IMG/VR virus record: IMGVR_UViG_3300050343_000177
Location: 1-64,000 of that record
Origin: a virus
Strand: one strand, 5' to 3'
Length of the DNA: 64,000 nucleotides
Made by a program: the position numbers and the translations under genes. The notes beneath the pieces are model-generated. The model saw only the letters and a list, made by a program, of their open reading frames with translations. It made no database searches and had not been told where the DNA came from. Positions 5,036 to 55,239 of this stretch are shown in pieces (positions within the stretch are counted from its first letter, which is position 1; every line of letters starts with the position of its first letter).

Positions 5036-5160
5036 TATTCTACAAACTACAAAACTACGCTAGCTACGCTGCTATCTAACCCTTTCTAAAAAAAGTCCTA
5101 TAGGTATAGCAAGGGATTTAACAAACAGGTATATAGAAAACTACTGTAGTTAGCGTAGTT
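5036..5160. repeat. Dispersed ~125-bp iteron-like element, copy A
   Basis: AAACTACAAAACTACGCTAGCTACGCT..CTAACCCTTTCT-A tract-variable core-AAACAGGTATATAGAAAACTAC..GTAGTTAGCGTAG. Confidence 0.9.
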
Positions 5161-5168
5161 TCTATCAA

Positions 5169-5975
5169 TTATTGCCTTACCTGACGAATTGCCTTTAACT
5201 TATCCTCCAAAGTCCAAGTTCCGTAGCGTGCTGTCATTCCATTTATTTTGTGACCTACAAGCTTAGAAATCATTGAATCCTGCAGCTCTGCTGACCTACA
5301 GCGAGTAATGAAGTTATGACGCAGTGAGTGTGCTGCTTCCCCTTTCGGTAGTTGCATTCGTTCGCTAAACATCTGACTCCAGTTCTTACCAGGGTATTGA
5401 CTGTAGTCAGTCGTTAGACGATTGACCTGTGTATAGAACTCAGGGTGAATAGGCACGTCTCTCTGTGCTCCTGGCTTGATATTTCTGACACTATTTTTCT
5501 TTATACGAAAGTAAGGTATCTGATTGTCGAAGCGTATTTCGTTTGGCAAGAGCCCTGCAATTTCACCGATGCGGAAGCCGTGATACCAGATAGCTAGGAA
5601 GATAGGGTCTGCTTGATAACGCCCGTAGTAACTGAAGGGTCTCACTGGATACTCTTTACCCAAGCGGTTGTAATCAGTATTTAATTTAATCTTTTTACTT
5701 GCCTTACTCCAGTAGTTAGGCACATCAATAATCTCATCTTCTGTTGCCATATTCCAGATACCTGTCAGCAGGCTCAACCTCCTGCGTAATGTCTCAGGAG
5801 AAAGGGTGCCTATCGGCTTAAGCTGAGACTTCCAATAACGATTGACAGTCATACGGTCAATGTCATGCACGTCAACATCAGCTATTGGCTTAGCTGCTTT
5901 AAGCCAGCACTTGAATGTTGAGTCACGGATGTCCTGCATGTCGCGAACATCTAAGAGCAATTGAGAGACTTTCAT
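5169..5975 (-). CDS. int: Tyrosine recombinase/integrase
   Basis: HGFRIGEI (R), HSLRH (HxxR), LVGH, MTARY (Y). Confidence 0.9.
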   Translation of the reverse strand: MKVSQLLLDVRDMQDIRDSTFKCWLKAAKPIADVDVHDIDRMTVNRYWKSQLKPIGTLSPETLRRRLSLLTGIWNMATEDEIIDVPNYWSKASKKIKLNTDYNRLGKEYPVRPFSYYGRYQADPIFLAIWYHGFRIGEIAGLLPNEIRFDNQIPYFRIKKNSVRNIKPGAQRDVPIHPEFYTQVNRLTTDYSQYPGKNWSQMFSERMQLPKGEAAHSLRHNFITRCRSAELQDSMISKLVGHKINGMTARYGTWTLEDKLKAIRQVRQ

Positions 5976-6015
5976 TGTGTATTCGGGTTATAAGCAACGC
6001 CAATACATATCTAAC

Positions 6016-6042
6016 AAAAAACCCCACCGTTAGGTGAGGTTT
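6016..6042 (-). terminator. Terminator downstream of the tRNA-like att core
   Basis: Minus strand AAACCTCACC-TAAC-GGTGGGGTTTTTT. Confidence 0.75.
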
Positions 6043-6053
6043 AAGCTAGAAAA

Positions 6054-6071
6054 CGGAGAGGGAGGGATTCG
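6054..6071 (-). other. Putative attP core matching the 3' end of a tRNA-Ser
   Basis: Minus strand CGAATCCCTCCCTCTCCG equals the T-loop to acceptor end of GGAGAG-start serine tRNAs; no 5' half present; next to the integrase. Confidence 0.75.
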
Positions 6072-6185
6072 CTCCTTCCGTTATTAGCGTTGTAACCAAA
6101 CTATAGCCCCTAATTGTCACTCAATCAATCAGTTGTGCTTATCAATCAAGGCTAAAGTTTTCCACAGTCCACGCCTTTCGCTCAT

Positions 6186-6401
6186 TTACCTATATTCCGA
6201 CTAATTCTACAATTTTGCTGGGATCTTTTTTGTCTCTTAATATAATATCATTATCTTCTTTTTTAGCTCTTAAAAATAAGCTCATTGCTTTTCTAAAAGC
6301 AATTAACTTGTTCGTCTCTGGGTGTTTTTCATGTATTCATCCAGAGCTTCGAACATGTCGCCGTCCATTCTTCCTTCGAATCTATGGGTGTTTGTTGTCA
6401 T
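6186..6401 (-). CDS. Possible ribbon-helix-helix regulator (frameshifted)
   Basis: MTTNTHRFEGRMDGDMFEALDEY..NK..LLEKAMSLFL pieced together across a frameshift. Confidence 0.4.
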
Positions 6402-6504
6402 TTCGCTTGTCTGGTGTATGTAATTTTATCTTAACCAATTAATAAATAATACTGTCCTTCTATTACTTACCGATAAAAGGAGAGATGTTATTTAGTAATA
6501 GTAT

Positions 6505-6849
6505 CTAAGCAAATACACGATAAGGGGTGCTAGGTGTGACTTCAAATGCTTCCCAACCTTCAGGTGAATCCCCTAGATAATTGATATGAAAACCGTCTAG
6601 TGTCGTTGGAGCGACGGTCTCATTACCGTCTTCATCCCATTCACCCCCAACTGTAATTGTTCCTGTGACATCAATCGCATGGTTATGGCTATATGCCCGT
6701 AGTTGTTCTGATTCGTTGCCATCTTGATCAGTGACAGTTATCATAAATCCAGCAGTACGAGCAGCATCGAGCCAGGTTTCTTCATCAGTAAACCGGAGAA
6801 AAGGTCCTGGTGCTGGTGTGGTTTCGAGTAGTTCTAGTTCTTCAGTCAT
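6505..6849 (-). CDS. Tail-fibre-associated acidic protein
   Basis: FLRF.DE..W, HAIDV.G.I, GFHINY, P.TPYRVFA; typical of genes after cyanophage tail fibres. Confidence 0.65.
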   Translation of the reverse strand: MTEELELLETTPAPGPFLRFTDEETWLDAARTAGFMITVTDQDGNESEQLRAYSHNHAIDVTGTITVGGEWDEDGNETVAPTTLDGFHINYLGDSPEGWEAFEVTPSTPYRVFA

Positions 6850-6866
6850 TATTTTAATTCTGTGAA

Positions 6867-7040
6867 TTAATCTTCTTCAATTGTAAAGACATAGCCAAGC
6901 TCTTGAGCACGGGCTTTGGCTTCTTGTTCGTTATCGAATTGTTCGATGTTTGGTTGGCCTGATTCAAATGCACTGCCGTGCTCTAGTTCAATGTAGTGAA
7001 CCGCATCAGGTCCGTGGCATACGTAATAGGTGTTGTTCAT
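6867..7040 (-). CDS. Small tail-associated protein
   Basis: 57-aa ORF MNNTYYVCHGPDAVHY..GQPNIEQF. Confidence 0.55.
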   Translation of the reverse strand: MNNTYYVCHGPDAVHYIELEHGSAFESGQPNIEQFDNEQEAKARAQELGYVFTIEED

Positions 7041-7044
7041 AGGG

Positions 7045-8397
7045 TTAAGCGTTGTAAGAGATCGTCCAACCCTTATTGATCAGGTTGGTGTAAGCAGTAT
7101 TAGCAGCAGTAGACCAAGTAGTTTTGGCTGCATTAGTGCCGTGGTTGATGCCAAGTGAGATGTTAGAAGCACCGTTCGTATCCAGACTGATAAGTATATT
7201 CTCAATTGATTGTGCAGTTAGGGCACAGCTCGTCCAAGCACTTTTAAATGCGTTAGCACTAAGTGTTCCCGTCGCGTCAAACATATTGGCGGGAAAGCTG
7301 CTAAGCCCGGAACAATGGTACCAGCCGCGGAAAAAGCGCGTCCCACTAGAGGTATCGATCTGGGGGAAGCTGCTAAGCCCGGAACAGCCGTTCCAGGCAC
7401 TGCTGAAGATCGTCCCACTAGAGGTATCGATCATGGGGAAGCTGCTAAGCCCGGAACAGTTTTGCCAGGCGTTGTTGAAGCTTGTCCCACTAGAGGTATC
7501 GATCATGGGGAAGCTGCTAAGCCCGGAACAGCCGTTCCAGGCGCTGACGAAGCTCGTCCCACTACCGGTATCGATCAGGGGGAAGCTGGTGAGGCTTGAA
7601 CAGTCGCGCCACGCAATGTAAAAGCTCGTAACCCCGCTCGTCACATCAAATGGACATACAAACGATGTCATGTTGTCAGCGCCACGCCAAGCGTCTCCTA
7701 GATTCGTGCCTAAATCAGCTTCACCACTAATGGCAACAGAAGTAATCTGATCTACATCTGCACTAACATTATTAAAGTATGGCCTATAAGTATTATCGCT
7801 ATTAACAAGAATGGTGTAATCACCAGCAGTATAAGTGTGAGATAACGTGCTAGAAGTGCTCGACTCGTTGTTACCGTCGCCCCAGTCAACAGTGTAATCA
7901 ACTGCTCCAGTGGATCTTAGGTTAAACGTACCTCCAGCACTTGTAATGCCGTAAGTAATGTCTGATCTAAATGGATTTAGATCTAAACCACCATTTCCAT
8001 GCTTAACCTTTTTAATCTGTTTATCACTATAGTCGTAGTAATAATCATCGTAGTTAACTAAAGCATATAATTCTGTTTTAGGGCATACTAGTATTCTCCT
8101 AATTCCACCGTCACCTTGATTCTTAAATATGACATTAAAGGTAGGTTCATTATTGTTGTCAGCGATAATCTTTAATAGAACATTAGCTTCACAACTCACC
8201 ACAACATAGGAGTCACGATATGCGATCAATGCACATCCTGTGTACGTAACTTTATCGTATGATTGATTCCACCATCGTTTGATTTTTGTATGGCTATGCA
8301 AATAAGGAGCAGGAGGTGCAATTGTGAACTCAGTATTCCCATCGCTTTTTATTAGCGAGTTATATCCATTTAATATTGCTACGGTCATTTTTACCAA
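7045..8397 (-). CDS. Tail fibre/receptor-binding protein with PKD-like DWGDG domain and BspA/DUF285-like repeats; N-terminus probably chimeric
   Basis: YTVDWGDG; repeats of SSFPMIDTSSGTxFxxAWxxCSGL; abrupt change in composition near 7990. Confidence 0.7.
   Translation of the reverse strand: MVKMTVAILNGYNSLIKSDGNTEFTIAPPAPYLHSHTKIKRWWNQSYDKVTYTGCALIAYRDSYVVVSCEANVLLKIIADNNNEPTFNVIFKNQGDGGIRRILVCPKTELYALVNYDDYYYDYSDKQIKKVKHGNGGLDLNPFRSDITYGITSAGGTFNLRSTGAVDYTVDWGDGNNESSTSSTLSHTYTAGDYTILVNSDNTYRPYFNNVSADVDQITSVAISGEADLGTNLGDAWRGADNMTSFVCPFDVTSGVTSFYIAWRDCSSLTSFPLIDTGSGTSFVSAWNGCSGLSSFPMIDTSSGTSFNNAWQNCSGLSSFPMIDTSSGTIFSSAWNGCSGLSSFPQIDTSSGTRFFRGWYHCSGLSSFPANMFDATGTLSANAFKSAWTSCALTAQSIENILISLDTNGASNISLGINHGTNAAKTTWSTAANTAYTNLINKGWTISYNA
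7290..7620 (-). repeat. 66-bp (22-aa) tandem repeats, about 5 copies
   Basis: Recurrent gaagctgctaagcccggaaca and gtcccactagaggtatcgatc at 66-nt period. Confidence 0.9.
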
Positions 8398-8649
8398 ACA
8401 AACACCTTTACTGTTATTATTTTAACTATTAACTAGTAACTATTAACTATTACTTGCTGCCTTGCTAGCTGCTTTAGCTCTAGAAATATTAGGTGTCACG
8501 TTTTTGTCCTCTCTTAGATGCTGTCTGCTTTTTAGCATCAGTAGCATTCTTTTCTTTTGGACTCAGATTGCTCCAAACTTTTTAGGTAGGTAACGTTTGG
8601 TTGAACCATCAGTTGTCCCTATCAGTAGACCCCTTTAGTTTTCCACAGG

Positions 8650-9021
8650 TCAGTCAGGTTGCTTGCTGTACTGCTTACCTTGAGCAGTGTCGCGGCGTTT
8701 CTTGGCCGAGGTTCTGGCGTAGTCTTTATCCGACATTGCATCACGCTTTTTCTTAGGCAGATAGCGTTCGCCAGTAGCGCCTTTGCCTTCGGTGCTGTTC
8801 TTACCAGACTTAGTGCCCCAGTCTTCCTTGGTCCACTTCTTCATCTTGTTGGATTTAGCAGATGGCTTCTTACCTTCGTAAGTACCGCCGCCGTCTTTAT
8901 AAATCTTGGTTGCTAGTTGCATTGCACGAGCAGAGTGCTTACCACCCATACGTGCCTTAGCTTTTGATTTAGCAGCAGCCCACTTAGCGGGATCTTTCTT
9001 CTTTGCAATACCGTCAGCCAT
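8650..9021 (-). CDS. Basic phage protein (DUF5872-like)
   Basis: GKHSARAMQLA, KWTKEDWGTKSG, GERYLPK. Confidence 0.65.
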   Translation of the reverse strand: MADGIAKKKDPAKWAAAKSKAKARMGGKHSARAMQLATKIYKDGGGTYEGKKPSAKSNKMKKWTKEDWGTKSGKNSTEGKGATGERYLPKKKRDAMSDKDYARTSAKKRRDTAQGKQYSKQPD

Positions 9022-9117
9022 TACTTCTTACCTTTGCTGTGTTTACAACCGCATTTTTTCTTTGCGATCTCTTTTTTCTGTTGAAAAATTCTTGAGCCTT
9101 TTGTTTCTTAGACATAA

Positions 9118-9291
9118 TTAAATTATATCTGCGTTAGAGAAGGGAATTATTCTGCCTTGAGCGGCAGCCACATCACGACGACGTTGGCGGTCCATAATAG
9201 AGACCATTCGTTGATTCTCTTGTGAATCTTTTTGTATTTGTTGTTCTAATTTTGCGAATAGGTCTTCGCCTGCCATTCGTTGTTTAGACAT
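9118..9291 (-). CDS. Small protein with RMAG motif
   Basis: 57-aa ORF MSKQRMAGEDLF. Confidence 0.6.
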   Translation of the reverse strand: MSKQRMAGEDLFAKLEQQIQKDSQENQRMVSIMDRQRRRDVAAAQGRIIPFSNADII

Positions 9292-9430
9292 ATGTTTGTC
9301 CTAATAGTTTTGGACCGTGACTCATACCACCTTTAGGTTTTGCGGGATATGTCTCAGGTTTGGTTGCACAACCTTCACCTGTATTAACCATCGGCTTAAG
9401 AGCCTGACCTGCCATACGTTGATTATCCAT
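9284..9430 (-). CDS. Small protein with RMAG motif
   Basis: 48-aa ORF MDNQRMAGQALKP overlapping its neighbours. Confidence 0.55.
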   Translation of the reverse strand: MDNQRMAGQALKPMVNTGEGCATKPETYPAKPKGGMSHGPKLLGQTYV

Positions 9431-9689
9431 TGCACTTCCATTTACGACGGGCTTTCCGTAAACGACTGTCTGGATCTTTAGCAGCTTTCGGAAACTTCTT
9501 CATTTGTCCTGCACTACGAGCGCAGTAAGAATCTTTGCGTTTACCACCTTCAGGCTGAGGTCGTTTAATGTCTTGACCTTGAGCACGTAAAGAAGCACGT
9601 CCTTTTTCATTTAACCCACCATCAGGATTTTTTCCCTCCTTGCGAGTCCAGGCTGCAGTTCTTGCTTTAGCTTTCTTACGATCTGCCAT
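9423..9689 (-). CDS. Basic phage protein (DUF6321-like)
   Basis: AWTRKEGKNPDGGLN..RKDSYCARS..SRLRKARRKWKC. Confidence 0.7.
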   Translation of the reverse strand: MADRKKAKARTAAWTRKEGKNPDGGLNEKGRASLRAQGQDIKRPQPEGGKRKDSYCARSAGQMKKFPKAAKDPDSRLRKARRKWKCNG

Positions 9690-9723
9690 TAGTTATAAGT
9701 AACTGCTCATAACATTTTAACAA

Positions 9724-10299
9724 CTATGATTTGTTGAAATATGCTTTATGCATTGCCAAACCTGCTGCCTGCGCTGCGTTTACGTCTTTGCCTGCACGTA
9801 AGCGGTCGTACTCTGCATTCAATTGTGAAGCAGTCATATCTTTGTAGTTTTGCGCCTTAGTCTTAGCTTCTGAACGCTCAGGTGTTGAAGTACTTTTACT
9901 TGTTGCTGCTAATCCGTTTGTAATAGCGGCATCACTTAGTACTGTATTTTGATCGTTACCGTGCATAAGTAACAGTTCATATTTCTTGCCGTCTTTTTCG
10001 ATTGCGTATTGATTAGTAATACCACCACCTTTGTCGTTAAAAGTAGTTAGGAAAGAACCGTCAACATCAATCTTTGTCCCTAGTTCTGTTGCATAATCAA
10101 CGCCTTTATGTATGTAGCTTCCACGGTCTGCTCCGTATGGACTAGTCATTGTGAATTGATTTAATCCCTTGCCTCCGCTACTGAGGTATCCAGTGAAGCT
10201 AGTTGGGTCAGTATAACCTCCGGCATCTACGTCCCAAACACGAAAGTCTAAATGAGGTCCTGTTGATCTACCGGAATTGCCTGTATAAAAACTAGCCAT
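9724..10299 (-). CDS. M23-like peptidase domain protein
   Basis: TGNSGRSTGPHLDF and TSPYG.R...HKGVDY motifs. Confidence 0.65.
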   Translation of the reverse strand: MASFYTGNSGRSTGPHLDFRVWDVDAGGYTDPTSFTGYLSSGGKGLNQFTMTSPYGADRGSYIHKGVDYATELGTKIDVDGSFLTTFNDKGGGITNQYAIEKDGKKYELLLMHGNDQNTVLSDAAITNGLAATSKSTSTPERSEAKTKAQNYKDMTASQLNAEYDRLRAGKDVNAAQAAGLAMHKAYFNKS

Positions 10300-10313
10300 T
10301 TTACTTGTGCTCT

Positions 10314-10574
10314 TTAATCCAAGTCCATTTCTGCGTGCATCAAGTCACTGAGGTTAGAGACTTGAGCGCAAGCATTCATAATCAAGCCGCGTTGGTTAGC
10401 GGTCAAGTTATCTGCGTCTATTGCATCTTCAGATAAGACGACTGAGATATCACCGAGCGCCATAATAATTGCTGGTAGTCCCCACTTTTCGACAAGTGAC
10501 GACATAGCAGAAAGCAAAGGATTCTCACCTGTCTCTACTGATTTCCAGAATTGTTCGCGTTCTTCAACGGTCAT
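10314..10574 (-). CDS. Hypothetical protein
   Basis: 86-aa ORF with TAGAAT -10 box upstream. Confidence 0.55.
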   Translation of the reverse strand: MTVEEREQFWKSVETGENPLLSAMSSLVEKWGLPAIIMALGDISVVLSEDAIDADNLTANQRGLIMNACAQVSNLSDLMHAEMDLD

Positions 10575-10635
10575 ATAGCTAAAGTCATATACAACTATTC
10601 TACCTATTAGAATGTCTGTAGTTGATATTAATTAT

Positions 10636-11334: not shown

Positions 11335-11468
11335 CTTTAGTTCTATAAGCACGAAGCACAACATATTAACCCCAAAGTTGTTAAACATTAGCTAGACCTA
11401 AGGTGTTAATGTCTATAAGATATGAATAAGCCTCTGCCTACACAAAAAGAGCTTTTAAATCCAGCATA

Positions 11469-13318: not shown

Positions 13319-13538
13319 TATGAAAAACCTATGATATCAACATTTTAACAATTGAATAGTTCACATAGGTTTTAGGTATATCAAGCAATATCGACTGCAT
13401 TGTGTGAAAGTAAAGCGTTATGTTTACGTGAAGAATTATCTCGGTGGGTTTCATGTGAAATACCCGGGTTAATACGCAGGCGTGATGCTGAAGTTAAGCT
13501 TGCGGTTTAGACAAAATGGTATTGACATATTAAGCAGT

Positions 13539-27315: not shown

Positions 27316-28222
27316 TCAGCCCTCTTGGACGAGCATCTTGGCTTGCAGTGCACCCTGTGGTGCCTGTGCCAAATACTTCCAAGCATTCTCAGGGTTGTTA
27401 TCCATCATCTGACCGAAGCCACCCCAGAAGTCATTAGCCTGATTCACCTGACGACCAGGTGTAGGCATTGCCATCTCAGGACGCTGGAAGTTCTGAGGAA
27501 CGTTATTCTGCTCTTGTGCACGAATCTCAGTTCTCGAACTGATCGCGAGCTTGCATACTGCTGCATCTGATACTGCCTCTTCTGCAGTAGGAGTTGGATA
27601 AGGACCTTCAGGACCATAGAAGTCATTGACGTAGTCAGCAAGCACGTCTGGGTCAGTCAGCATGAGGTTCATTGCTGCACGCTCTTCACCAGCTGCTTCA
27701 AGCATCAGTGATTGAGACTTGGACAGCTTGAACTTGCTCGATCAGTGCATCTTCTACAGCACAGGCATACTGGTTAAGAAGCACAGGGAGCTTCTGCACC
27801 GAAGTGCTCAAGAACTTCAAGACTTGCGTCGCTGATCTGACTTAGATACGCGTCGCTTACCGCCTCTTGTTTGAGGCTGAAGGCCCTGCATTGGAGCCTG
27901 GGCCGTATAAGCCTGGGGTTGAAACTTGGGGACTGTAGGTCGGCTGCGCCGAAGGCACCGACATTTGCTTGGGGAGTTGAAGCCCAATTGACTTGTTGAG
28001 AAGCCTGCGTTGTCGGAGTCTGGTATGCCGAGTACGGAACCTGGGTTTGGGAGGGGCTGCTTGTATTCAAGCTTGCGCTGAGCGCCTGGAACGCCTCCTG
28101 CCATGGATTGCCCTGTGGTGCCGAAGCCTGCTGCGCCTGGGCCGGTGCCTGGTAAGTTGGCCGGAATTTGTGGGACCTGGTGCCTGGACCTGATAGGCCT
28201 GCGAGATTTGGGGCTGGCTCAT
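27316..28222 (-). CDS. Putative scaffolding protein (frameshifted)
   Basis: P/Q/A-rich N-terminus, NPWQEAFQAL, coiled coil, LTDPDVLADY; directly after the portal. Confidence 0.6.
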
Positions 28223-30040
28223 CCCTGGTTGGGAGACCGATGCCTGGATGCGGCGCTCGTCGGCATCGGAGAGCTTGTCGGGGCTTGGGCCGGAATCGCT
28301 TGGTTTGTAGCTTCCACTGTAACTTAACTCCTTACGTAAAAATTCGAGTGATCTATATAAGAACCCTGTGATATCAAGATTCGGATCAGATGCCAATGGC
28401 AAATCTGGCGTCTGTGGGTGTGGTAGTTGATAAAGACTACCGAGTAATCCAATGAATGAATTTAAAGACTGTTGCGTTTGTTGAACCATCCTGAACGGAT
28501 AGCCTGAAAGCATTGCTGCTCTCTCTTCATCCGTTTTATTTGGGAATAGATACTTAAGTGCTTCAATAGAATCGACACCTAATTCTTGAAGATTTCGGAC
28601 GACAATACTGTTATTAAGAATGTCATCTGTACCTTCTTCAAATACTTCTCCCATCCAACGCCAGCTAACTTTAGTGCTACCGTCAGGAACTAATCCAACT
28701 ACTCCTGGAGGCATTTCGCCTGACTCAAGTGTAGCACGGATGTTTTCTTCTCTTTGTTGAATAAACTTCTGAATATCTTTCTGATATTTCTCCATTGCTT
28801 TCGTAAATGCTTCTTCATCACCAAACTCTTCAGGCAATGGAATCTCTGGTTTTTGACAAGACCAATCGCTACTGCAAATGATCTTGGAACATCTTCTCTT
28901 CATGATTAATCATTAATGAAACAACTTACATAGACCGTAAGTGAAAAGACCTTTTGCTTTTTTCTCTGCTGTAGCTGCTACACGACCATAGAGTGTCTTG
29001 ATTTCATAAGCAGTACCAGCAGTACCGATGTCAAGGTCATCTACACCGCCTAGTGCTAGACGAATCTCTGATCTGTAGTTCTTGACATATAGATTCTGGT
29101 CACCAGACACACTATCGGGTGTCATGTACTGAACACGGTCAGTTGGTTCAAGGTTTGCAATAACACGTGGGACTTTGATCTGTCCATCAACTGAACGCCC
29201 ACCAAACGGCTGACTGACACGAGTGCTGTGCATTGACCCACCAGTCATTGGTGCAAATCCTGCTTGTGAACTAATCGTTGGCTTGAAACTACTCTCGTCA
29301 CCAGACTCAATCAGGTCGTGACGTGGGCGACTTGATACCAGTGTTGGGTTACCAAAGAACTTGAGGTTCTTACGAATGTTTCTGGTTAGCTCATCGTGAT
29401 ACAGAATCTGATGTGCAAGCCAATCGAACTCACCATTACCAGTTGCTTCACCTGTGCAATCCATATGATTGAACACTTCAACTGCTGGAATGAATCCAAG
29501 TGAGTTTGTCAGAGTCTCTGTAGACCCTGGCATATTCATAGGCAGTGACCGTTCTCATTATCAAACTCAATCTTCTCATCAGAGATTGTTTGTTCGATCC
29601 TGTCTTGTAAACTTTCAGTCGAATATACTTTTTCTTACCACCACGACTTGTTGCATTGTCGCATATGCACCAAGCGTTTGATTGCTTTACTGCAAAGCTA
29701 TAGACAAGCACGATGCTTTCTAATTCATTATTCTGATCTCGATATGCTCTATAACTATCTTTTGGGAAATACAGAAGTTGATAATCATCACCTGTTGGCC
29801 TGAAGTAAAATAACCCTTGACCGTCACATAAGAAGTAATCAACAATACTGTCGAGCTTCATATCAAGCATGTTGTGCTCACATACTTGTTTTATAAACTC
29901 TCGACGTTTACCATATGAATCTTGTTCAGCAAAGAATTCAATTCCTCGACGCAGCATAAACATCCGCATCTGTGCTAGATGGGAAGACACAATCATGCTG
30001 TCTACAGACAGATCACCCCTACGCTCTTTAGCTGCAGTAA
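28190..30040 (-). CDS. Portal protein (frameshifted; ends approximate)
   Basis: ~600 aa in pieces after the terminase; NSLGFIPAVE, TAYEIKTLYGR, V.WRW. Confidence 0.75.
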
Positions 30041-30089
30041 GATTTGTTGAAATCTCTGTCTGTACTTGAACTTGCTTACATATTTCATT

Positions 30090-31589
30090 CCTATGCACCA
30101 CGTCTTAATAATCCACCCATCGTAAGCACCATAGAATCTACAGCATCATCATGCTGTGAATGTCCGAAATTAATAGTTCATCTTCAAGGATATTCCACTT
30201 ACGCCATTTGTTCCATACACTTTTTATGTTCATACAACCAAGCACTCCACGTAATCTTGCTAGTTTGTCTCCTTTAAATCCTTTCACTGGTGAGCATGCA
30301 AGGTTATATAAAGCACGTTGCTCAAACATCACACGTTTAAAGTCACCTTCAAATGATGTCTGATATGCAACAGCTTCTGGCCATATCATGCACGGCGACA
30401 TCGTAGGGAACCATTGACCTTCATCGTTTTCAAGCAAGATGTTCCAGTCAGATAAGCATCTCACATAAAGTATCCATCTTCTCTAGATTGCCCATTGTTC
30501 GTGACCGACGTTGGTCAATGAGATATATCTTTCCGTCTTTGATGCCACCTAGTGTCATTACAGTCCAGTCATTCTTTTCGCTTAGGCCAGCACTAAGGTC
30601 AATACCTACGCCTAAGCAGTCATAATCTTCTGGGACTACATCTTTGACAATCAGTTCTGGTGAGATACCGACGTCTGCATTACGAACTGCTGTATTGAGA
30701 TACTGATATGCAAAGGCAACACGATCTTCCATCTTGCGTTCGTTTAGATACTTCATTGACCAGAACTCTGGCCAGTACGAACGTTGCCTACCGTCAGCGT
30801 CTGTTATGACAGCTTTCTGTACAATCTGTTTCCAGTTGTTCTTGGGGACAAAGAGAGTGGCGTGAATATCGTCAAAGTGGAAGCGGGTTCCCAAACAGAT
30901 AGCCCGTGCACCTTGGAACATCGTTGGTGCGATAACGTTAGACCACGTCTGCTCCATCTCACGGCGAATGTCTGGGTTGTTGATTGAAGCGGCAGATTTG
31001 ATAGGGTCATCAATAAGCACCAGCTGCGATCGTTTAGAGGTGATTGCACCTTTGAGACCACCACACGCAATTGTGAAAGCTTCTTCACCTGCTGTGTCAA
31101 TGCCTGCAAAATCATAGTCAATACTCCAGTATTCATCTGAACGTTTAATCTTTGAAAGTCTCACCATTGGAAAGACTTCACGGTATTTATTACTTGTCAA
31201 AATACCTTTAATGGTTGCACTCTTTGCTCGACTGATGTCAACCATGTATGCAATATATAGTATACGCAACATCTGCTTTGCTGCGGTATGTCTACCAATC
31301 ATCCATGCTGCAAATAGTCCAAGCACTGTTGACTTAGCTGAACCACGTGGTGCAAGGATTGCAGTATTAGGTCCACCAATGCCCATCAAGCATTCACTAT
31401 CTACACCAGTACATAACTCTGCGTGCCACTCACGCATATGATTAGCAGGAGCTTTACCCATAAATACACAGAAGTCTTTGAAGTCATCTCGTGCTCTAAT
31501 ACTTCTGGTGATGGTGGCTTAGTTGTTACTTTAGTTGCCGTCATTAATGCTGAACGACGATAAGCTAATGCTGCACTTGGTATTGCCAT
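30090..31589 (-). CDS. terL: Terminase large subunit (frameshifted)
   Basis: Walker A APRGSAKST, Walker B LVLIDDP, GTRFH, nuclease GIDL..DWT, HDDAVDS. Confidence 0.9.
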
Positions 31590-40088: not shown

Positions 40089-41627
40089 TTATTTCTTTTT
40101 AGTGTACTGATCTAAAATTCCACCTGGACGAAAATAGTCTTCTTCAGCACCTGGTTTACTGAAATCGTAGTTTTCAATAACATTGGCAGGCACAACCGGA
40201 CCGACACCAGTCTGAGGCGCACCTTGATTATTATTCAGTGCAAAATCAGTCTTTGCTCCTGCAGCAAATGCAGATTTCACAGCAGACCCTGCAGCAGATA
40301 AAGGATTCTGTGCGGATGCAGGAGTATCTTTGCTTACATCTTTATTTTTATCGATATGTGCGGCTAATAGTGACTGAGCACTGGATTTACCGCTGGATAT
40401 ATCGCGAGCATCGGCCCGATCAATCTTAAATTTGTCTCCGAGCTTCCCATCTTCGGTCAATGCGCCACGACCATAGTGCTGACCGCCCGCATATACGACG
40501 TTATTTACCGCATCACGCGCTTTTAGTCCTGACATACTGTCGTCACCGCTCATAAATGCAGCACGTGCCATCAATTGACGGCGTTCTGGCGTCATTTCCC
40601 TGTTTGCTTCCTGCGTTTTTACCCCTTCAAGCGCATCTGACAGTCTTCCGCTAGAAATTCCTGTGGATTGTTGGGCGATTCGCTCCGATCCGCCTTCAAT
40701 TAGTGGAGCACCGGGGTTAAATGGCGCTTGATCCTGCAGATTTGTAGAACGAATTGCAGATACTCCACCTTCTGCGTCGAAATTTACAGCAGCTCTACCA
40801 CCGAAGTCGCCTTGACTTGTATCAAAGCCGGGTGTCTGTGCACCTGTTTGTGCATATGGGTTTGACATTGTGGATGCCAACTGGTTAGAGCTAAACGGCT
40901 GTACACCTAAGCCTTTGAGTAGGTCATCAAACGTCCTATTCATATTGATTGGCGTACCGCCACCGCCGAGATTTTTACCCGTTTGTGTACCTCCGCCAGG
41001 AATTTCACGAGTTTCCTCTGCAGGAAGAATAGTTCTTTCAGATACTTGTCCTGTGTAGCCACCTGATGAATGATCATAATTACCTTTGGTCTGCTTAAGA
41101 GCTGCTGCTGTCTCCGCTTGCTGCTTTTTTATCCTTGCGTCTATATCAGCAGTGTTGTTAAAAGTACTGCTTGAAGTATCCGAGCCGATAGGTCTCTCTT
41201 TATTAGCATTCTGACTAACTGCCTTTTGATAAGCCTCTGGACTTGAGTATCCAAGACGACTCCACTTTCTACTTGAGTCCTCACTCCCACCAAGGATTAG
41301 TGGTGCTGTTACTGCACCAGTTGTGGTCATACTTCCTAGACCCAACAAGCTTCCAGCATTTTTTTGAGTTAGCTGTCCCGTAGGTTTAGCAGCATAAGGA
41401 TTTGGTTTAGCAGGTTGAGAGCCTGGCATTGCCTTTATCTTGTCTTTGATAGTATCAAACACATTCCTTGATTGTCCTGAAAAATTACCCTTATTAGGTT
41501 TAGCGGAGTAAGGGTTTGGCTTACTGGAAGGCTTTTTTGGTTTTGAAATCACGTCATCATAATCAGCACCAAAAAGTACTTCGCCAACTTTTCCAATCGC
41601 GTTATCTAAAAACTGCTGTGCTGACAT
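40089..41627 (-). CDS. Large low-complexity putative internal virion protein
   Basis: 512 aa; KPNPY.AKP repeat. Confidence 0.6.
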   Translation of the reverse strand: MSAQQFLDNAIGKVGEVLFGADYDDVISKPKKPSSKPNPYSAKPNKGNFSGQSRNVFDTIKDKIKAMPGSQPAKPNPYAAKPTGQLTQKNAGSLLGLGSMTTTGAVTAPLILGGSEDSSRKWSRLGYSSPEAYQKAVSQNANKERPIGSDTSSSTFNNTADIDARIKKQQAETAAALKQTKGNYDHSSGGYTGQVSERTILPAEETREIPGGGTQTGKNLGGGGTPINMNRTFDDLLKGLGVQPFSSNQLASTMSNPYAQTGAQTPGFDTSQGDFGGRAAVNFDAEGGVSAIRSTNLQDQAPFNPGAPLIEGGSERIAQQSTGISSGRLSDALEGVKTQEANREMTPERRQLMARAAFMSGDDSMSGLKARDAVNNVVYAGGQHYGRGALTEDGKLGDKFKIDRADARDISSGKSSAQSLLAAHIDKNKDVSKDTPASAQNPLSAAGSAVKSAFAAGAKTDFALNNNQGAPQTGVGPVVPANVIENYDFSKPGAEEDYFRPGGILDQYTKKK

Positions 41628-41650
41628 CTTACTTGTTCAATATATTCTCT

Positions 41651-41776
41651 TATTCTACAAACTACAAAACTACGCTAGCTACGCTCCTATCTAACCCTTT
41701 CTAAAAAAATGATAGTAGGGGGAGATGACCGTGCATTAATAAACAGGTATATAGAAAACTACCGTAGTTACCGTAG
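41651..41776. repeat. Dispersed ~125-bp iteron-like element, copy B
   Basis: Same flanks as copy A, different central ~30 nt. Confidence 0.9.
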
Positions 41777-41972
41777 CAAAAGCGTTTGACTCTAAACCTC
41801 AGTCAATAAGCAGGCTAGACCTTCCCCAATTTATAAAGTAACACAGCCTCCAAAGCTAGTGATTATTAAGACAATCTGCACACTACATTATTATGTATGC
41901 ACATTAATTTCAAGCAACCACATATTTGTTTTTTAAGTTCGCTAATATTAAAGTGTTGAAGGCATAATTGAT

Positions 41973-42599
41973 ATGAACTATGAAAACTTAAAATACACGG
42001 AATTAGCTACAGAGTTCAAAAAGATTCACAGAAAGAAGATATCACCTGAAGCATTGATGTATCGCGTCAAGACGAAAGGATTATCAAAGACTGAAGCTGT
42101 TAATCTTCCTTTAGACACACGTGGGAAATCAAGCAAGACTAAGCAGCTTCGGGTCGGTCGTCGTCCTCGTAAAGAACGCTGTTCTGGTCTGACTTATTGC
42201 TATCTACATATTGATGTTGCGGGTACGGGTGCTCCTCCTGTTGTCCGCTATGTAGGCAGAGGTGAAGGGGGACGATGTTTGCATTTTAAGGATCGTGAAA
42301 AGCTGCATGCTGACTGGATTCATTCATGGTTTACTGATATTGATTACGGTGCGATTGAGATGGGTGTAGCGCCATCAAAACTTAGAGATCTTAGTTGGAT
42401 TGATTGTTCAGTTCGTCAAAAGCTTATTGTGACTTCAAGTCCTTTTGAAAATGCTAAACGTGAGGAGCCGAGGCTTATTAATCGCTATAATACCAAGGAT
42501 CATGATCTATTTAATCTAATTCTTCATGCAACTGATAGACGTAGTATTAGTAAAGAGTTTCAGCCACGACCATTACGTAAAAAGCAGATCGCCGCATAG
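41973..42599 (+). CDS. GIY-YIG-like endonuclease with N-terminal DNA-binding segment
   Basis: YCYLH..VRYVGRG..R; AK.EE..LI..Y..LFN. Confidence 0.55.
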   Translation: MNYENLKYTELATEFKKIHRKKISPEALMYRVKTKGLSKTEAVNLPLDTRGKSSKTKQLRVGRRPRKERCSGLTYCYLHIDVAGTGAPPVVRYVGRGEGGRCLHFKDREKLHADWIHSWFTDIDYGAIEMGVAPSKLRDLSWIDCSVRQKLIVTSSPFENAKREEPRLINRYNTKDHDLFNLILHATDRRSISKEFQPRPLRKKQIAA

Positions 42600-50847: not shown

Positions 50848-51132
50848 ATGTCTAACACGAACTTCAACGCTGTTCTCTTCAACGGCAACAACAGTAATCC
50901 TAGAGCTCCTCAGCTTTCTGGATTTGTATCAATCCCTGTATCACAAGTTGATCAAGTGATTGCACTATTGCAAGCACAGCGTCGTTTTTCTGACAACGGT
51001 GTTGAAACTGTGCGTCTTCCTCTGTCCTTCTGGCAAGCACAAGGAAAGGCACCGCTTGCTTATAAGGGCCAAAGTTCATTCTGGACTGGCACTTCCGTTC
51101 CTGCAGTAGACCCAACTCCAGCTGTCGCTTGA
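50848..51132 (+). CDS. DUF736-like small protein
   Basis: LF.....NPRAPQLSG.V....LSFW. Confidence 0.4.
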   Translation: MSNTNFNAVLFNGNNSNPRAPQLSGFVSIPVSQVDQVIALLQAQRRFSDNGVETVRLPLSFWQAQGKAPLAYKGQSSFWTGTSVPAVDPTPAVA

Positions 51133-51196
51133 GTCTTTTCCCTCCTAACGGAGGGATTTTTTCTTATCCTTAAGTAAACAACAGCCGTATCAGACA

Positions 51197-51472
51197 ATGC
51201 CTACTACAGCTCCAACTAAAACTAAAACTATCCCTACTGTCACACCTGATTCATATGAGTGGCACACCTGTGCTGACGGCCAGTATCGCGTAGTTCAAAC
51301 TCGATTTGGTCTATACAAAAGTGTTGACAAGCTAAATAATGATCTCATTACTGGATTAACTGAAGAAGCAATTCACAATTGCACTCCTCTGCATTTACTG
51401 GCACAGCAGCCTGACTATGACAAACGTTACGATACCGTTATAGGTAAAGCTACTGTGACACCTGACTTATGA
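51197..51472 (+). CDS. Hypothetical protein, paralog 1
   Basis: Highly similar to 51865-52140. Confidence 0.7.
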   Translation: MPTTAPTKTKTIPTVTPDSYEWHTCADGQYRVVQTRFGLYKSVDKLNNDLITGLTEEAIHNCTPLHLLAQQPDYDKRYDTVIGKATVTPDL

Positions 51473-51864
51473 ATCCAGAAAAACAATTAAAGAAACTAGC
51501 GAAAACTTACAAGGTATCGATGCAGTTCACTTGAGAACTAACGATGCCTACTGGAATCAGCACCCTGAAAAAGTATATAAAGTCCAGCGTTAACTAATAT
51601 TAACATTGTAAAACTTCGAACTTGGAAATGACTCAATCAACTACTTGGGAACAGTTTATCTACGGGATTGTTAACTTTGGAGACTGTTGGTACGCTCGTT
51701 TTGATACGGAAAACTGTTGTCGTGAAGATTTCTGGGAATGGTTATCAACAGGATATTATAGCATGTATGTCTATCCTTATCCAGATAACGATCCTTGGAA
51801 TTTAGCCGGTCGCGATCCTATGGAATCTGTATACAAAAAATGAATTAACACAGGAGAACAACTC

Positions 51865-52140
51865 ATGACAACTGCTACAAAGACTAAAAAGAAAGATATT
51901 CTCACTGTTTCTACTGATAACTATGCCTGGTTCACTTGTGAACACGGCTCCTACCGTGTCGTCGAGACACGCTTTGGCTTATACAAAAGTATTGATAAGC
52001 AAGGCAACGACCTTATCACTGGCTTAACTGAGCAAGCAATTCACGACTGTACTCCCTTACATTTATTGGCACAGCAGCCTGATTACGATGGAAAATATGA
52101 CACCGTTATCGGTTCTGCATCCGTAACTCCTGACCTATGA
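51865..52140 (+). CDS. Hypothetical protein, paralog 2
   Basis: Shares TRFGLYKS and NDLITGLTE.AIH.CTPLHLLAQQPDYD. Confidence 0.7.
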   Translation: MTTATKTKKKDILTVSTDNYAWFTCEHGSYRVVETRFGLYKSIDKQGNDLITGLTEQAIHDCTPLHLLAQQPDYDGKYDTVIGSASVTPDL

Positions 52141-52881
52141 ATGAACATAAACAATTGAAAAAGCTTGCGAAAACTTACGCTAAAGCTGACTCCTGTGTTG
52201 ATAGAGACACCGCTCAGAAGCTTATTAAAAAAGCTACAAAAATCAGAGCTAAATTAGAAAAGTAATTGATATATTAACAGTGCATACCACAACAATTCTT
52301 TCCCTTTTCTCTGGCTTTTGTGTCGGCTCTATAGCCGCTGCTCTAATCCTTCATTGATACTGTATGAACATAAATATTTCTCTATCTATAGAAGACTACA
52401 CGATTCTCATTAATGCTCTTCACTACTACAAGAAAGCAGAGAAGCGCGGCAACTTTCAACAATATGACACTGACCGTATCAATCAACTAAGAGACCATAT
52501 GGCCTCACAGTTTATGAGTGGCTTCAGTTAAACAGCCCTTCCGCCCTATCGGGCGGTTTAGTCGCTTGTGTTCTCTATATTTCCTATGGAACAATCTTAT
52601 TGCCTCATCTCATCGTTCAACCTCGAACGTATTGATGAAATGCTCGTTCGTGCTATCAACATCTGTGGTAGCCCTCGTCCATTCTCTGAAACTACTGAAG
52701 AGGATGACTGCACTGCCTCATATGCAGGAGCTTATGGTTACTCCTATCAGACACTGAAAAGTATCAAAGAGTATATCGATACGGCTCGACCTTATGACCC
52801 TTCTATCACTGGCGTTCCGTTCTGACTTAAATACACAAGCAGGTCACTACTTATTATTTAAGTAGCTAGACTTGCTTTATT

Positions 52882-52953
52882 GGGGCATTAGTGAAACGGT
52901 TATCACAATAGATTGTCTATCTATTATTAGCAGTTCGAATCTGCTATGCCTCG
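52882..52953 (+). tRNA. tRNA-Asp(GTC)
   Basis: Acceptor GGGGCAT/ATGCCTC, D arm GTGA/TCAC, anticodon arm ATAGA-TTGTCTA-TCTAT, T arm AGCAG-TTCGAAT-CTGCT; TAGACT -10 box upstream; no CCA. Confidence 0.92.
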
Positions 52954-52971
52954 TTATAAGTACTACTGAAT

Positions 52972-53451
52972 ATGACTAATAAACATAACTGGACTGAATT
53001 ATTCGAAAGCTTGCCTGACGAAGAGCTAGATAAACTAGCCATCCTTCGAATTATTGAAACTTCGAATGGAATTATACAATTCGCCTTCCGCGACAAAACA
53101 CCTGACGCTCTGTCTGTTGAAGACACCCGCAAAGCTATGGGATTTAGTATGTCTTCTATCAAACGAATGCAGATTGTTCTCGAAAACGAAACGATTGACT
53201 TTGCTGAACCTACCAAAGACATTATGGCATTGGTTCGCAAATATTATGTAAGCGGTATGAAGCAGGGCTCTGACGAAGATTATGAAGAGTTTCTCCGTTC
53301 TTCTCTTGCCTGCTTACAAGCCGTAGGTATAGAACGTTTGGAACGTGCAAAAGATAAACTCTTTGCGTTTAGCTATGCTATGCCTCCCTATGCATGGGAG
53401 TATGGAATGTCTTACTGCCGTAACTTCTTAAAAGAAGGTTTGCCTACTTAA
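52972..53451 (+). CDS. Conserved-looking hypothetical protein
   Basis: Intact 159-aa ORF. Confidence 0.65.
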   Translation: MTNKHNWTELFESLPDEELDKLAILRIIETSNGIIQFAFRDKTPDALSVEDTRKAMGFSMSSIKRMQIVLENETIDFAEPTKDIMALVRKYYVSGMKQGSDEDYEEFLRSSLACLQAVGIERLERAKDKLFAFSYAMPPYAWEYGMSYCRNFLKEGLPT

Positions 53452-53506
53452 CTGTCATTTAATACTAGATATAATGTCTGTATTAAACATGTAACTTGTT
53501 AATATC

Positions 53507-54118
53507 ATGGGAAGGCGTACTGCACATACTGGACTTAATCGTAATAACGATTTCTACAATAAGTACGGTCAACTTAAGGAGGGCTACAGCTTTACAGGTG
53601 GCAATAATATGGTCGCACGTGGCACTGGTGACGTTAGTGTTCGCTATGGTGCCGGTAAAGATGGTACAAATTATAAAATAGAGCAACGCACTATTTACGG
53701 TAAAGAATCTCAACCTAAAGCTGCTCCTCAAAAAGCACCGGCTCCTGCCCCTAAATCTAAGCCTAAGCCTAAGCCTAAGCCTGAACCTGAACCTATCAAA
53801 CACTCACCTGAGATTCAACAAGCTAAAGCAAGTGTGGCTAAATACAAAAGTGAAATACTTAATGATCAAACATCTAAATCAATGTACGGCAATGATCAAG
53901 ATTTACTAAGTGCTTACACCCAAGACTTTGACGCTCGTAATAGTACTGAAGGAGAGAAGTCTACTCCTAACCTAAACTTAGATTTACCTAATAACGTAGA
54001 CACTACAGATAACAATTACTTCGCTAATGGCACGTTTGACCCTGTCAATAAATCTGACGAAGCAGCACAGAACTTCTTTTCTAACAAAAAGAACCTTGTC
54101 CTAAACAACTTCAGATAA
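53507..54118 (+). CDS. Low-complexity protein with PK/PE repeat
   Basis: Shares HSPEIQQAKA.V.KY..IL with the next gene. Confidence 0.65.
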   Translation: MGRRTAHTGLNRNNDFYNKYGQLKEGYSFTGGNNMVARGTGDVSVRYGAGKDGTNYKIEQRTIYGKESQPKAAPQKAPAPAPKSKPKPKPKPEPEPIKHSPEIQQAKASVAKYKSEILNDQTSKSMYGNDQDLLSAYTQDFDARNSTEGEKSTPNLNLDLPNNVDTTDNNYFANGTFDPVNKSDEAAQNFFSNKKNLVLNNFR

Positions 54119-54149
54119 TTTAGAATAGATATATTCTTGTTATTATCCA

Positions 54150-55109
54150 ATGTCTGTATATAAAGGTGAAACTTCCTACAGTGCTAATAAAGATGCAGCA
54201 CAAGCATTCCTTGACGACAAACTTTCTAAGAACAAATACAACTCTTCTAATGACTATTCAACAGAAGGGTTTGACCCCTCTAGCTATACATCCGAGCAAC
54301 TGAGCTCACTCAATGCCTCTGGTGGTCCAACTAAGTTTGGTAAGAAAACGTATAATGTTGTCTCTAATCAAGATGAGATTGATAACTTTAATAATGCACC
54401 TAGTACTGCAACAAGTACTTGGGATGGTAAAAACTATACTCGAAACTCAATGAACTCTGATGATTTGAAAAATCATTTTGGTCTTGCAGACGGTAGTGAT
54501 GTTGGATCTGGTTTTAATAAATCCACAGGTGCAACAGATGATAATCAAACCAAAGGAAATGCTTTACTTGGTGAAGGTTATTTGACAGACGATAACTACG
54601 AAAAACTTCGCAATTCTGATAAGGTTTGGGATGCTTATGCTGCTATGGAAGGGCAAGAAGCTGCTGATGAAAAACGTGAAGGAAATCCTGACGGTCTCTC
54701 TATTAATGCACTTGATGGCTTATTTGATAACCTGACAGCTAATGCAGACCCTAAAAAAGCTCCTGAACCTATAACTGAAAAAGAAGAAGTCGTTCACTCA
54801 CCTGAAATCCAACAGGCTAAAGCACGTGTTGGTAAGTATGAGAACGACATTCTCTCTGGTAAGACTTCACAAGATATCTACGGTGGCGCTGATGATTTTT
54901 ATACAGACTATCAACTGAAGCTTCAAGGCACGCCTAATCCAATAGGTAACAACAGTAACTATCGGTTTGACGATGGCGCACTGAACTTCAACGGCTCTGA
55001 TATCTCTGCTGATGAAAAACCACCTGCCCCTGTACAAGCAGCTTCTTCGTTCCTTGCTAATCAAAAGAAAAAAGCTATCAAAGACTTTAACATTAAACCT
55101 ACGAACTAA
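54150..55109 (+). CDS. Acidic low-complexity paralog
   Basis: HSPEIQQAKARVGKYENDIL. Confidence 0.65.
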   Translation: MSVYKGETSYSANKDAAQAFLDDKLSKNKYNSSNDYSTEGFDPSSYTSEQLSSLNASGGPTKFGKKTYNVVSNQDEIDNFNNAPSTATSTWDGKNYTRNSMNSDDLKNHFGLADGSDVGSGFNKSTGATDDNQTKGNALLGEGYLTDDNYEKLRNSDKVWDAYAAMEGQEAADEKREGNPDGLSINALDGLFDNLTANADPKKAPEPITEKEEVVHSPEIQQAKARVGKYENDILSGKTSQDIYGGADDFYTDYQLKLQGTPNPIGNNSNYRFDDGALNFNGSDISADEKPPAPVQAASSFLANQKKKAIKDFNIKPTN

Positions 55110-55239
55110 AAACTACAAAACTACGCTAGCTACGCTACTTCCTAACCCTTTCTGAAAAAATACATCTATAGAGGGAAGGCCACTGCCTATTAAAAAAGGA
55201 CTTTATTAGAATCGAGCGTAGTTTGTGTAGCAGCGTAGT
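55110..55239. repeat. Dispersed ~125-bp iteron-like element, copy C
   Basis: Identical 27-bp left arm, CTAACCCTTTCT, divergent right arm keeping GCGTAG/GTAG repeats. Confidence 0.85.

Follow-up and report, generated by a model that had tools for sequence, protein, structure and literature searches.

Candidate operator–promoter cassettes dispersed through the genomes of an uncultured marine cyanophage lineage

Genomes of an uncultured, S-EIV1-like lineage of marine cyanophages carry three to four copies of an intergenic element of about 140 bp, which most likely represents a protein-bound operator joined to an outward promoter, and neither a replication origin nor a guide RNA. As far as can be judged from sequence, we consider it slightly better than an even bet that these elements are dispersed transcriptional control cassettes of a temperate-type phage, akin to the tetramer-box operators of ParG. 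The window that was analysed comprises 64,000 nucleotides (positions 1 to 64,000) of the IMG/VR record IMGVR_UViG_3300050343_000177, and its features are compiled in Table 1.

Table 1. Positions of the elements, their parts and the neighbouring genes in the window.
Feature	Position	Strand	Remarks
Copy A, whole cassette	5034..5171	+	Covariance model R1, 132.7 bits; right arm abuts integrase stop codon
Copy B, whole cassette	41649..41789	+	Covariance model R1, 140.9 bits
Copy C, whole cassette	55100..55243	+	Covariance model R1, 117.5 bits
Left arm of A	5040..5067	.	Five CTAC/CTAG boxes 3–5 bp apart (GTAG if read outward on minus strand)
Left arm of B	41655..41682	.	Identical to left arm of A
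Left arm of C	55113..55133	.	Outer part replaced by end of upstream gene
Right arm of A	5141..5158	.	Palindrome CTAC-N-GTAG, then second GTAG box
Right arm of B	41759..41776	.	
Right arm of C	55218..55238	.	Three GTAG boxes
Inner box GGTATATAG of A	5128..5136	+	
Degenerate inverted copy CTATCTAACC of A's inner box	5072–5081		
Inner box GGTATATAG of B	41746..41754	+	
−10-like TAGAAT of A	5037..5042	-	Overlaps outermost left-arm box; ATG 24 nt on
−10-like TAGAAT of B	41652..41657	-	Overlaps outermost left-arm box; ATG of first structural-arm gene 24 nt on
Possible weak −10 TAGTAAT of C	55236..55242	+	Right-arm end; ATG 24–25 nt on; misses TAnRAT
53-aa ORF	4851..5012	-	Served by A's putative outward promoter
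512-aa ORF, first structural-arm gene	40089..41627	-	Served by B's putative outward promoter
First ORF downstream of C	55267..55539	+	
Small ribbon-helix-helix (RHH) gene	55796..55990	+	571 nt downstream of C; candidate box reader
268-aa tyrosine integrase	5169..5975	-	Pfam PF00589

The three copies that a sequence-only reading had reported in the window, all on the plus strand, were borne out as true copies, and the 27-bp identity among them is exact, as is the CTAACCCTTTCT block; the 18-mer AACTACGCTAGCTACGCT occurs three times against 0.05 expected occurrences. Beyond the window, the 80,431-bp record contains no further copy, giving a total of three. When IMG/VR was searched with a covariance model, about 30 more matches (about 28 by one count) were obtained in related contigs, and the genomes G000, G003, G004, G005 and G006 have three to four copies each at syntenic intergenic sites. 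The copies are direct repeats in both complete genomes. Copy B lies between the minus-strand structural arm and the plus-strand early arm, which diverge from this junction; its position and its orientation relative to the structural arm are unchanged in six genomes, and in seven contigs the left arm of the copy at this junction is 21–25 nt away from the first start codon of the structural arm. Copy C is located between the early small-ORF region and a block with RHH, DUF932 and psbA genes and has syntenic counterparts in G003 and G005, and one copy is found inside the structural (tail) operon of G003 and G004. No phage record showed DNA similarity to either the element or the B region, and the cultured relative S-EIV1 has no copy. 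A scan of a cellular-genome collection for the arm pattern yielded nearly exclusively chance matches; the two true copies, both on MAG contigs of less than 3 kb, are probably phage DNA that was wrongly binned. The sequence was present in 20 sequencing runs, all as contigs; in the four runs that were compared with the region, contigs break at the elements and the loose ends belong to related phages, and one RNA run, with 6% of the sampled words and next to no coverage here, gave no usable signal. Paralogues within G000 resemble one another (78% identity) about as much as orthologous copies of different genomes do (75–79%), and the comparison therefore allows no clear statement on concerted evolution.

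Each copy is a quasi-palindrome in which two arms of four-base CTAC/GTAG boxes surround an A-tract-rich centre. The boxes read CTAC in the left arm and GTAG in the right arm, there are three to five of them per arm with spacers of 3–5 bp, and the arms are inverted. Triple GTAG arrays gave six matches where 0.05 were expected, all inside elements, and none was detected outside elements in five genomes. The right arm had been described as complementary to the left, and this is indeed the case, with 12 pairs and 96% of cells paired in 25 copies. The boxes are invariant across the 25-copy alignment, the spacers vary and thereby break the pairing in up to seven copies, and in none of the 12 pairs did a compensatory change occur on both sides. 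With constant boxes and with spacers whose changes are not compensated, the alignment points to DNA sites that are read by a protein, and not to an RNA helix. The centre, which spans an arm-to-arm distance of 72–88 bp, contains two outward-facing GGGTATATAG-like boxes, two A-tracts and one purine run. Its cores had been regarded as unrelated, but they can be aligned across the family and have in common two A-runs and, between them, a YATAG motif that precedes the purine run. Among relatives, the centre is not fixed in its orientation towards the neighbouring genes. Three further ideas on the centre were rejected: the GGGTATATAG box as a general promoter motif, as it is found only within elements; a T7-type promoter formed by TATAG and the purine run, as no ORF is long enough for a single-subunit RNA polymerase; and a helical-phasing constraint on the arm-to-arm distance, which has no fixed phase within its range.

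A promoter-like hexamer is associated with the arms. Counted over the 61 arm sides of 31 copies, the pattern TAnRAT is present 22–30 nt after the first box on 24 sides, which belong to 24 of the copies, and never on both sides of one copy. The hexamers (TAGAAT, TAAGAT, TAAAAT, TACAAT) overlap or touch the last box and read outward, and an ORF of at least 45 amino acids begins with ATG 21–28 nt past the hexamer in 24 of 24 cases. Arm sides that face an incoming gene are without the hexamer. The canonical cyanobacterial −10 element is TAnAAT (PMC8682795), and a recognisable −35 element was not seen in the putative promoter. Seven of the 31 copies have no TAnRAT hexamer, among them copy C and those within the structural operon of G003 and of G004; in these operon copies, the next ORF starts at the arm's edge. 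At the spot of the 53-aa ORF next to copy A, the gene of a small hydrophobic protein starts in relatives. The gene at the position of the 512-aa ORF is not homologous among related genomes, a search for related loci with this 512-aa neighbour returned no relative, and Pfam gave no match for the large ORFs that relatives have next to copy B. More generally, the B- and C-type copies are neighboured by unrelated genes in related genomes. The assumption that all copies lie next to genes of DNA-cutting enzymes was correct for the integrase, but the 208-aa and 90-aa neighbours, considered to be GIY-YIG-like and HNH proteins, gave no such match in Pfam or PHROGs. As the cassettes are conserved and their neighbours are not, the cassettes probably also act as homology patches for module exchange.

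Judged solely from gene order, the best candidate for a reader of the boxes is the RHH protein, whose gene is found 177–571 nt downstream of a C-type copy in six genomes. Its Pfam match to Antitox_RHH (E = 5.8e-4) is below the curated cutoff; a profile built from five homologues matches solved CopG-family, ORF56, Mnt and omega proteins (PDB), and the AF2 model shows an extended N-terminus and two helices. S-EIV1, which has no element, also has no RHH homologue, and a search of IMG/VR for further RHH loci returned only the two that were already known. The β-strand residues fall into two subgroups, KRITVMV and KKIQVQM, and the boxes are the same in both. Because these residues differ although the boxes do not, the RHH protein may not be the reader.

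We propose that host RNA polymerase would start about 7 nt after the hexamer and transcribe the adjacent gene, and with such a start the box array would cover the spacer and the −35 region of the promoter. A small phage protein may then coat the boxes of both arms cooperatively and set the activity of the promoter, and looping of the A-tract-bent centre could be part of this control. If the RHH protein is the reader, it would also regulate itself, since it is encoded just downstream of the C-type copy. The cassettes would thus define a small phage regulon of three or four promoters, located at the start of the structural arm, ahead of the gene that follows the integrase, at the RHH/DUF932/psbA operon and, in some relatives, at a tail-gene junction.

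The sequence-only reading had preferred multiple replication origins, at which an initiator, with a VapE-like primase-helicase of about 750 aa as the candidate, would bind the inverted arrays and melt the A/T-rich centre as in the SaPI ori or the P4 ori/crr. The likeness to iterons that it had recognised holds true, as the arms are inverted arrays of a repeated box around an A/T-rich spacer, and the A-tract-rich 72–88 bp between them could be a meltable region of the kind seen in iteron origins. Several iteron or origin loci per phage genome are possible, as in T4 and P4. The lineage also encodes the VapE-like primase-helicase (PF05272, E = 6e-48), which is 81–87% identical among element-bearing genomes and was not found in S-EIV1, itself without the element. 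However, no copy is within 9 kb of the primase-helicase gene (G000 73959–76186, with the nearest copies at 55.1 kb and, across the record's ends, at 5.0 kb), and a fourth copy at this gene, for which it had been suggested to look, is absent. In G000 and G005, the cumulative GC skew does not inflect at any of the copies, and in the window it passes straight through all three sites. There are three to four copies per genome, one of them within a tail operon in G003 and G004, the arms are proximal to putative promoters and fused to the −10-like hexamer at a fixed distance from a start codon, and the linked DNA-binding gene encodes an RHH protein, a fold of repressors and centromere binders. We therefore found no support for the origin reading and consider it unlikely.

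The elements could also be recombination sites of the 268-aa tyrosine integrase, so that the integrase-adjacent copy would be attP, or the centre would be invertible between its inverted arms and act as a switch. This alternative, recombination sites having likewise been raised before, is retained for the integrase-adjacent copy only. In eight of nine homologous integrase loci, an element lies 0–60 nt past the integrase stop codon, and the ninth has a whole tRNA-Ser gene at that spot, tRNA genes being classic carriers of attachment sites. In addition, the centre occurs in either orientation relative to the integrase gene among relatives and the putative promoter always points away, a pattern that is expected from past inversions between the arms. 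The integrase-adjacent copy might double as an attachment site. Most copies, however, are far from any integrase gene, the adjacency being restricted to one copy per genome, and recombination among copies that are direct repeats would delete essential modules. Contigs from three DNA metagenomes contained neither a strand-switch joint nor a B/C junction, a hybrid for which a search had been suggested, and the cellular-genome collection yielded just the two short MAG contigs mentioned above. In Synechococcus WH8016, tRNA genes form the borders of the related island (bioRxiv 10.1101/325100). As an explanation of the elements as a whole, integrase-mediated recombination is improbable. It would be equally speculative to combine both functions in one multi-purpose site, where a coat of RHH protein on both arms would bring the A-tract centre into a loop, the complex would silence three or four lytic promoters in the lysogen, and the copy next to the integrase would also serve the arm-less 268-aa integrase for integration or for flipping of the centre. 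If true, a temperate marine picocyanophage lineage would have its immunity and attachment system described for the first time.

We give little credence to a function as centromere-like or genome-organising sites, in which an RHH coat would serve the partition of an episomal prophage or compaction and transcriptional effects would be secondary. ParG, an RHH protein, uses its tetramer-box arrays as operator and as centromere (PMC3130281), and several dispersed copies per genome would fit such a role, but a ParA-type ATPase was not found among the ORFs scanned (part of all ORFs), the phage encodes an integrase, and the elements are strongly linked to putative promoters. A structured non-coding RNA, suggested earlier as an arm-helix scaffold whose variable core would act like a guide, and the equivalent hairpin of single-stranded DNA are both highly implausible: the plus strand does fold better than shuffles (z = −2.9 to −3.5) and has two variable arm-helix pairs (G-C/G-U and A-U/G-U), but the 25 copies contain no pair with both partners changed and their covariation score equals that of shuffles, the partners of the inner hairpin are not specific to their copy, a search of Rfam 15 returned nothing at the gathering score or up to E = 5, common motifs dominate the homologous cores, and the centre is not fixed in orientation relative to its neighbouring genes. 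This inner hairpin of left spacer and purine run appeared compensatory by eye in several copies; since pairing with the matched partner is no better than with a mismatched one (p = 0.09 for the plus strand and 0.04 for the minus strand), it is not claimed.

Among the candidates for temperate phages that infect marine Synechococcus and Prochlorococcus, this lineage ranks first (Flores-Uribe et al., bioRxiv 10.1101/325100). In this uncultured group, three or four putative promoters are marked by a conserved cassette that is easy to recognise; it points to a candidate regulator and offers a handle on testing lysogenic control. With the covariance model as a marker, members of the lineage can be traced in metagenomes, and the cassettes explain why assemblies break at these places, which may be seams of module exchange.

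Among known systems, the omega heptad arrays of pSM19035 and the Arc/Mnt operators of P22 are bound by small RHH repressors, which cooperatively occupy short repeats at several promoters of one replicon. The cassettes share with them the short repeats, direct or inverted, at several (here putative) promoters, but those operators are contiguous, differ in repeat length and sequence, and have no long quasi-palindromic frame. One conserved type of site scattered at the heads of separate operons is also seen with the C1 operators of P1 and the stoperators of mycobacteriophage L5; these are single sites of 13–17 bp for helix-turn-helix repressors, whereas the cassettes are composites of 140 bp. Primase-helicases serve the iteron origins of SaPI and P4 (ori/crr), which are found within or next to the gene of the initiator. 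These origins resemble the elements in that two sets of short repeats flank an A/T-rich stretch and that a VapE/D5-type primase-helicase is encoded in the genome, but in the cyanophage the primase-helicase gene has no copy nearby and the arms bear putative promoters. The PeSLs of T4-type phages, which consist of an early promoter and a terminator hairpin and are numerous in hyperplastic regions, are conserved regulatory repeats of about 100 bp that border hypervariable genes in a similar manner (PMC2839356, PMC4122927). Their flanks are not homologous between close relatives, and such repeats can therefore act as recombination patches. PeSLs have no box arrays, and a terminator-type hairpin was not found in our element. 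The operator OF of ParG consists of eight boxes of 4 bp that are set 4 bp apart, some direct and some inverted; it binds one RHH dimer per box and overlaps a promoter (PMC3130281). It differs from the cassettes in its box, which is ACTC and not GTAG, and in forming one continuous array, whereas here two arrays are 72–88 bp apart around a structured centre; moreover, three to four dispersed copies are present in a phage genome, no ParA partner was seen, and the RHH protein is a candidate binder. Like OF and parH of plasmid TP228, however, the cassettes have about 8–12 four-base boxes, 4-bp A/T-rich spacers, mixed orientation and a putative overlap with a promoter. The GTAG arrays agree with the 4–7-bp boxes, the 7–9-bp period and the mixed orientation of ParG-OF-type arrays, and, as with ParG, a small RHH gene is encoded next to one array on the same replicon, which was found in six genomes.

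The element is most likely a putative dispersed operator-promoter cassette, ordinary in kind, as judged from sequence; its architecture and its sequence are new. The sequence stretches match what the sequence-only reading had described as three dispersed repeats: copies A, B and C can be aligned over ~140 bp with a mean column identity of 76%, the 27 identical bases claimed for the left arm are common to all three, as is the block CTAACCCTTTCT, and an 18-mer from this arm has three occurrences where 0.05 are expected. The cores, said to be unrelated, turned out to be a diverged yet homologous segment, and a fourth copy was looked for in the rest of the 80,431-bp IMG/VR record (G000), of which the window is the first 64 kb, and was not found there. 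Related copies first came from scanning IMG/VR for exact patterns taken from the arm, and a covariance model (R1) was built from ten of them. R1 finds three plus-strand copies in the genome of the window, three minus-strand copies in the complete 84-kb genome G005, and four, two and one copies in the related genomes G003, G004 and G006, respectively; about 28 more matches come from further contigs of the lineage, and a few of these matches are one and the same site on overlapping loci. Two additional copies are found on contigs of <3 kb that binning had assigned to bacterial MAGs, and Synechococcus phage S-EIVl, the sole relative among deposited phages (50% identity in a virion protein), has none. 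The observation is real, and it uncovers a family of conserved elements in a cyanophage lineage of which little is known.

With an integrase, psbA and a split family-A DNA polymerase in combination, the genome fits the uncultured marine lineage described by Flores-Uribe et al. (bioRxiv 10.1101/325100), whose paper does not mention these repeats. A run of minus-strand genes extends leftward from 41.6 kb to 2.3 kb and includes those for the terminase, a portal-like protein, the capsid and the tail fibre, plus-strand genes are found from 42 kb on, and the window also contains a group I intron, a tRNA-Asp and a glutamine riboswitch, which sits where two gene arms converge. Several genes that are single ORFs in G003 and G005 are present as 3-4 ORFs each in G000, which suggests assembly indel errors or real frameshifts. 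Outside the window, an IF-1-like ORF with 81% identity in G003 is an unusual auxiliary gene in a phage, and within it a 63-aa ORF lies close to psbA. A motif common to two ORFs, YxY...YVG[KR]G, looks like GIY-YIG to the eye, and neither ORF has a Pfam match.

Replication origins of the primase-helicase type had been the preferred explanation of the sequence-only reading. A VapE-like primase-helicase is indeed encoded in the lineage, frameshift-split in G000 and whole in G003 and G005, but no copy of the element lies near it, and there is no skew change at the copies: the cumulative GC skew keeps falling steadily across all three of them and across the strand switch at 41.7 kb. As the skew falls regardless of this switch of the coding strand, it is not transcription-driven. 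Along G000, the fall is monotonic from ~2 kb to ~60 kb and then flat, and the curve of G005 is its mirror image.

A guide RNA is not supported. The element is a quasi-palindrome, with R1 also scoring the opposite strand. From left to right, a left arm of CTAC boxes (CTAC-AAA-CTAC-AAAA-CTAC-G-CTAR-CTAC) is followed by a CTATATACC-like box, an A-run, a YATAG motif that leads into a purine run, another A-run (ATTAAAAA), the box GGGTATATAG and a right arm of GTAG boxes, with an arm-to-arm distance of 72-88 bp. The plus strand folds better than shuffled sequences (z about -3), and this reflects nothing more than the inverted arms. In an alignment of 25 copies, none of the twelve arm pairs was changed on both sides, and the covariation score of the arm pairs was that of shuffled partners. 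The inner hairpin looks compensatory by eye in several copies; in a partner-swap test, the copies' own right segments were not clearly better than those of other copies (p = 0.09), and Rfam has no match to the element. The four-base boxes are invariant in the 25 copies, the spacer positions are variable, and pairing is broken in up to seven copies; such a pattern, with the boxes fixed and the spacers free to vary, is the hallmark of boxes that would be read by a protein. Recombination sites had been another suggestion, and hybrid junctions were looked for, but no B/C joint occurs in the contigs of three DNA metagenomes, which break at the elements, the loose ends there being part of cassettes of related phages.

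The copies of the putative operator-promoter cassette sit at syntenic positions. B-type copies, which are syntenic with copy B, lie at the divergence of two gene arms in each genome that covers this point, with 21-25 nt between the left arm and the start codon at the head of the structural arm's first gene. This gene is not homologous among genomes: it encodes a different protein in almost every genome (window, G003, G004, G005, G006 and the loci L112 and L165), the products have 152 to 512 aa, and none of them has a Pfam or PHROG match. The position is a hypervariable slot. Just past the right arm of every B-type copy is a short hairpin (window 41777-41810; G003, G004, G005, G006, L112) with a conserved YGACTCYAAA in loop or stem and with stems that vary between genomes, and this hairpin is perhaps the early arm's first signal. 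The A-type copy directly follows the integrase gene in gene order, and at eight of nine loci with integrase homologues from IMG/VR the element begins 0-60 nt past the stop codon; the ninth (L293) has a complete tRNA-Ser gene instead, likely an attachment-site carrier. The C-type copy precedes a block with DUF932 and psbA genes, and a fourth type fills the gap between two tail-region genes in G003 and G004.

The arms carry a putative promoter. When the arms are read outward from the centre, 24 of 61 arm sides have a TAGAAT, TAAGAT, TAAAAT or TACAAT hexamer 22-30 nt past the first box, and it overlaps or abuts the last one; the canonical cyanobacterial -10 element is TAnAAT (PMC8682795). The hexamer is never present on both sides of one copy, all 24 hexamers are followed at 21-28 nt by the ATG of an ORF of 45 aa or more, and the hexamer is missing where an arm side faces an incoming gene's end. 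At integrase-adjacent copies, the candidate promoter is always directed away from the integrase gene, in either orientation of the centre.

Coordinates of the candidate promoters and of other features (window positions unless stated otherwise)
Feature	Position	Strand	Remarks
Hexamer of copy A	5037-5042	-	candidate promoter for ORF 4851-5012
Hexamer of copy B	41652-41657	-	candidate promoter for ORF 40089-41627
TAGTAAT at copy C			sole candidate at the matching place, 24-25 nt ahead of ATG at 55267
Candidate RHH gene	55796-55990	+	
Glutamine riboswitch	2021-2082		upstream of 60-aa ORF 2107-2289; 38.9 bits, gathering score 35
DNA polymerase, C-terminal part	729-1878		split in G000
Portal-like virion protein	28067-30101		split in G000
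Primase-helicase	73959-76186 (G000, outside window)		split in G000
GIY-YIG-resembling ORFs	27-533; 41973-42599		
psbA	59875-60963		
63-aa ORF	61459-61650		weakly similar to chlorophyll a/b-binding proteins of the high-light-inducible type
IF-1-like 76-aa ORF	66652-66882 (G000, outside window)		PF01176, translation initiation factor IF-1, E = 4e-15
tRNA-Ser gene	L293:3313-3420 (IMGVR_UViG_3300046171_000298)	opposite	directly after integrase stop codon, replaces cassette

A candidate reader of the boxes is the ribbon-helix-helix (RHH) protein encoded downstream of copy C, the link being gene order only: in six genomes a homologue lies downstream of the C-type copy, co-directional with it, at a distance of 177-571 nt, and S-EIVl has no RHH homologue either. 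The protein of the G005 type has 105 aa. The Pfam RHH matches of this ORF are sub-threshold, a profile of five homologues matches solved CopG-family, ORF56, E73, Mnt and omega proteins, and in the AF2 model (pLDDT 74) two helices come after an extended N-terminus. Between two subgroups the DNA-contacting strand of the protein is unlike and the boxes are alike. ParG, an RHH protein, recognises its operator and its centromere through arrays of 4-bp boxes that are set 4 bp apart, occur in direct as well as inverted orientation and overlap a promoter (PMC3130281), and the arms of the element resemble these sites in being arrays of short boxes in both orientations over a putative promoter.
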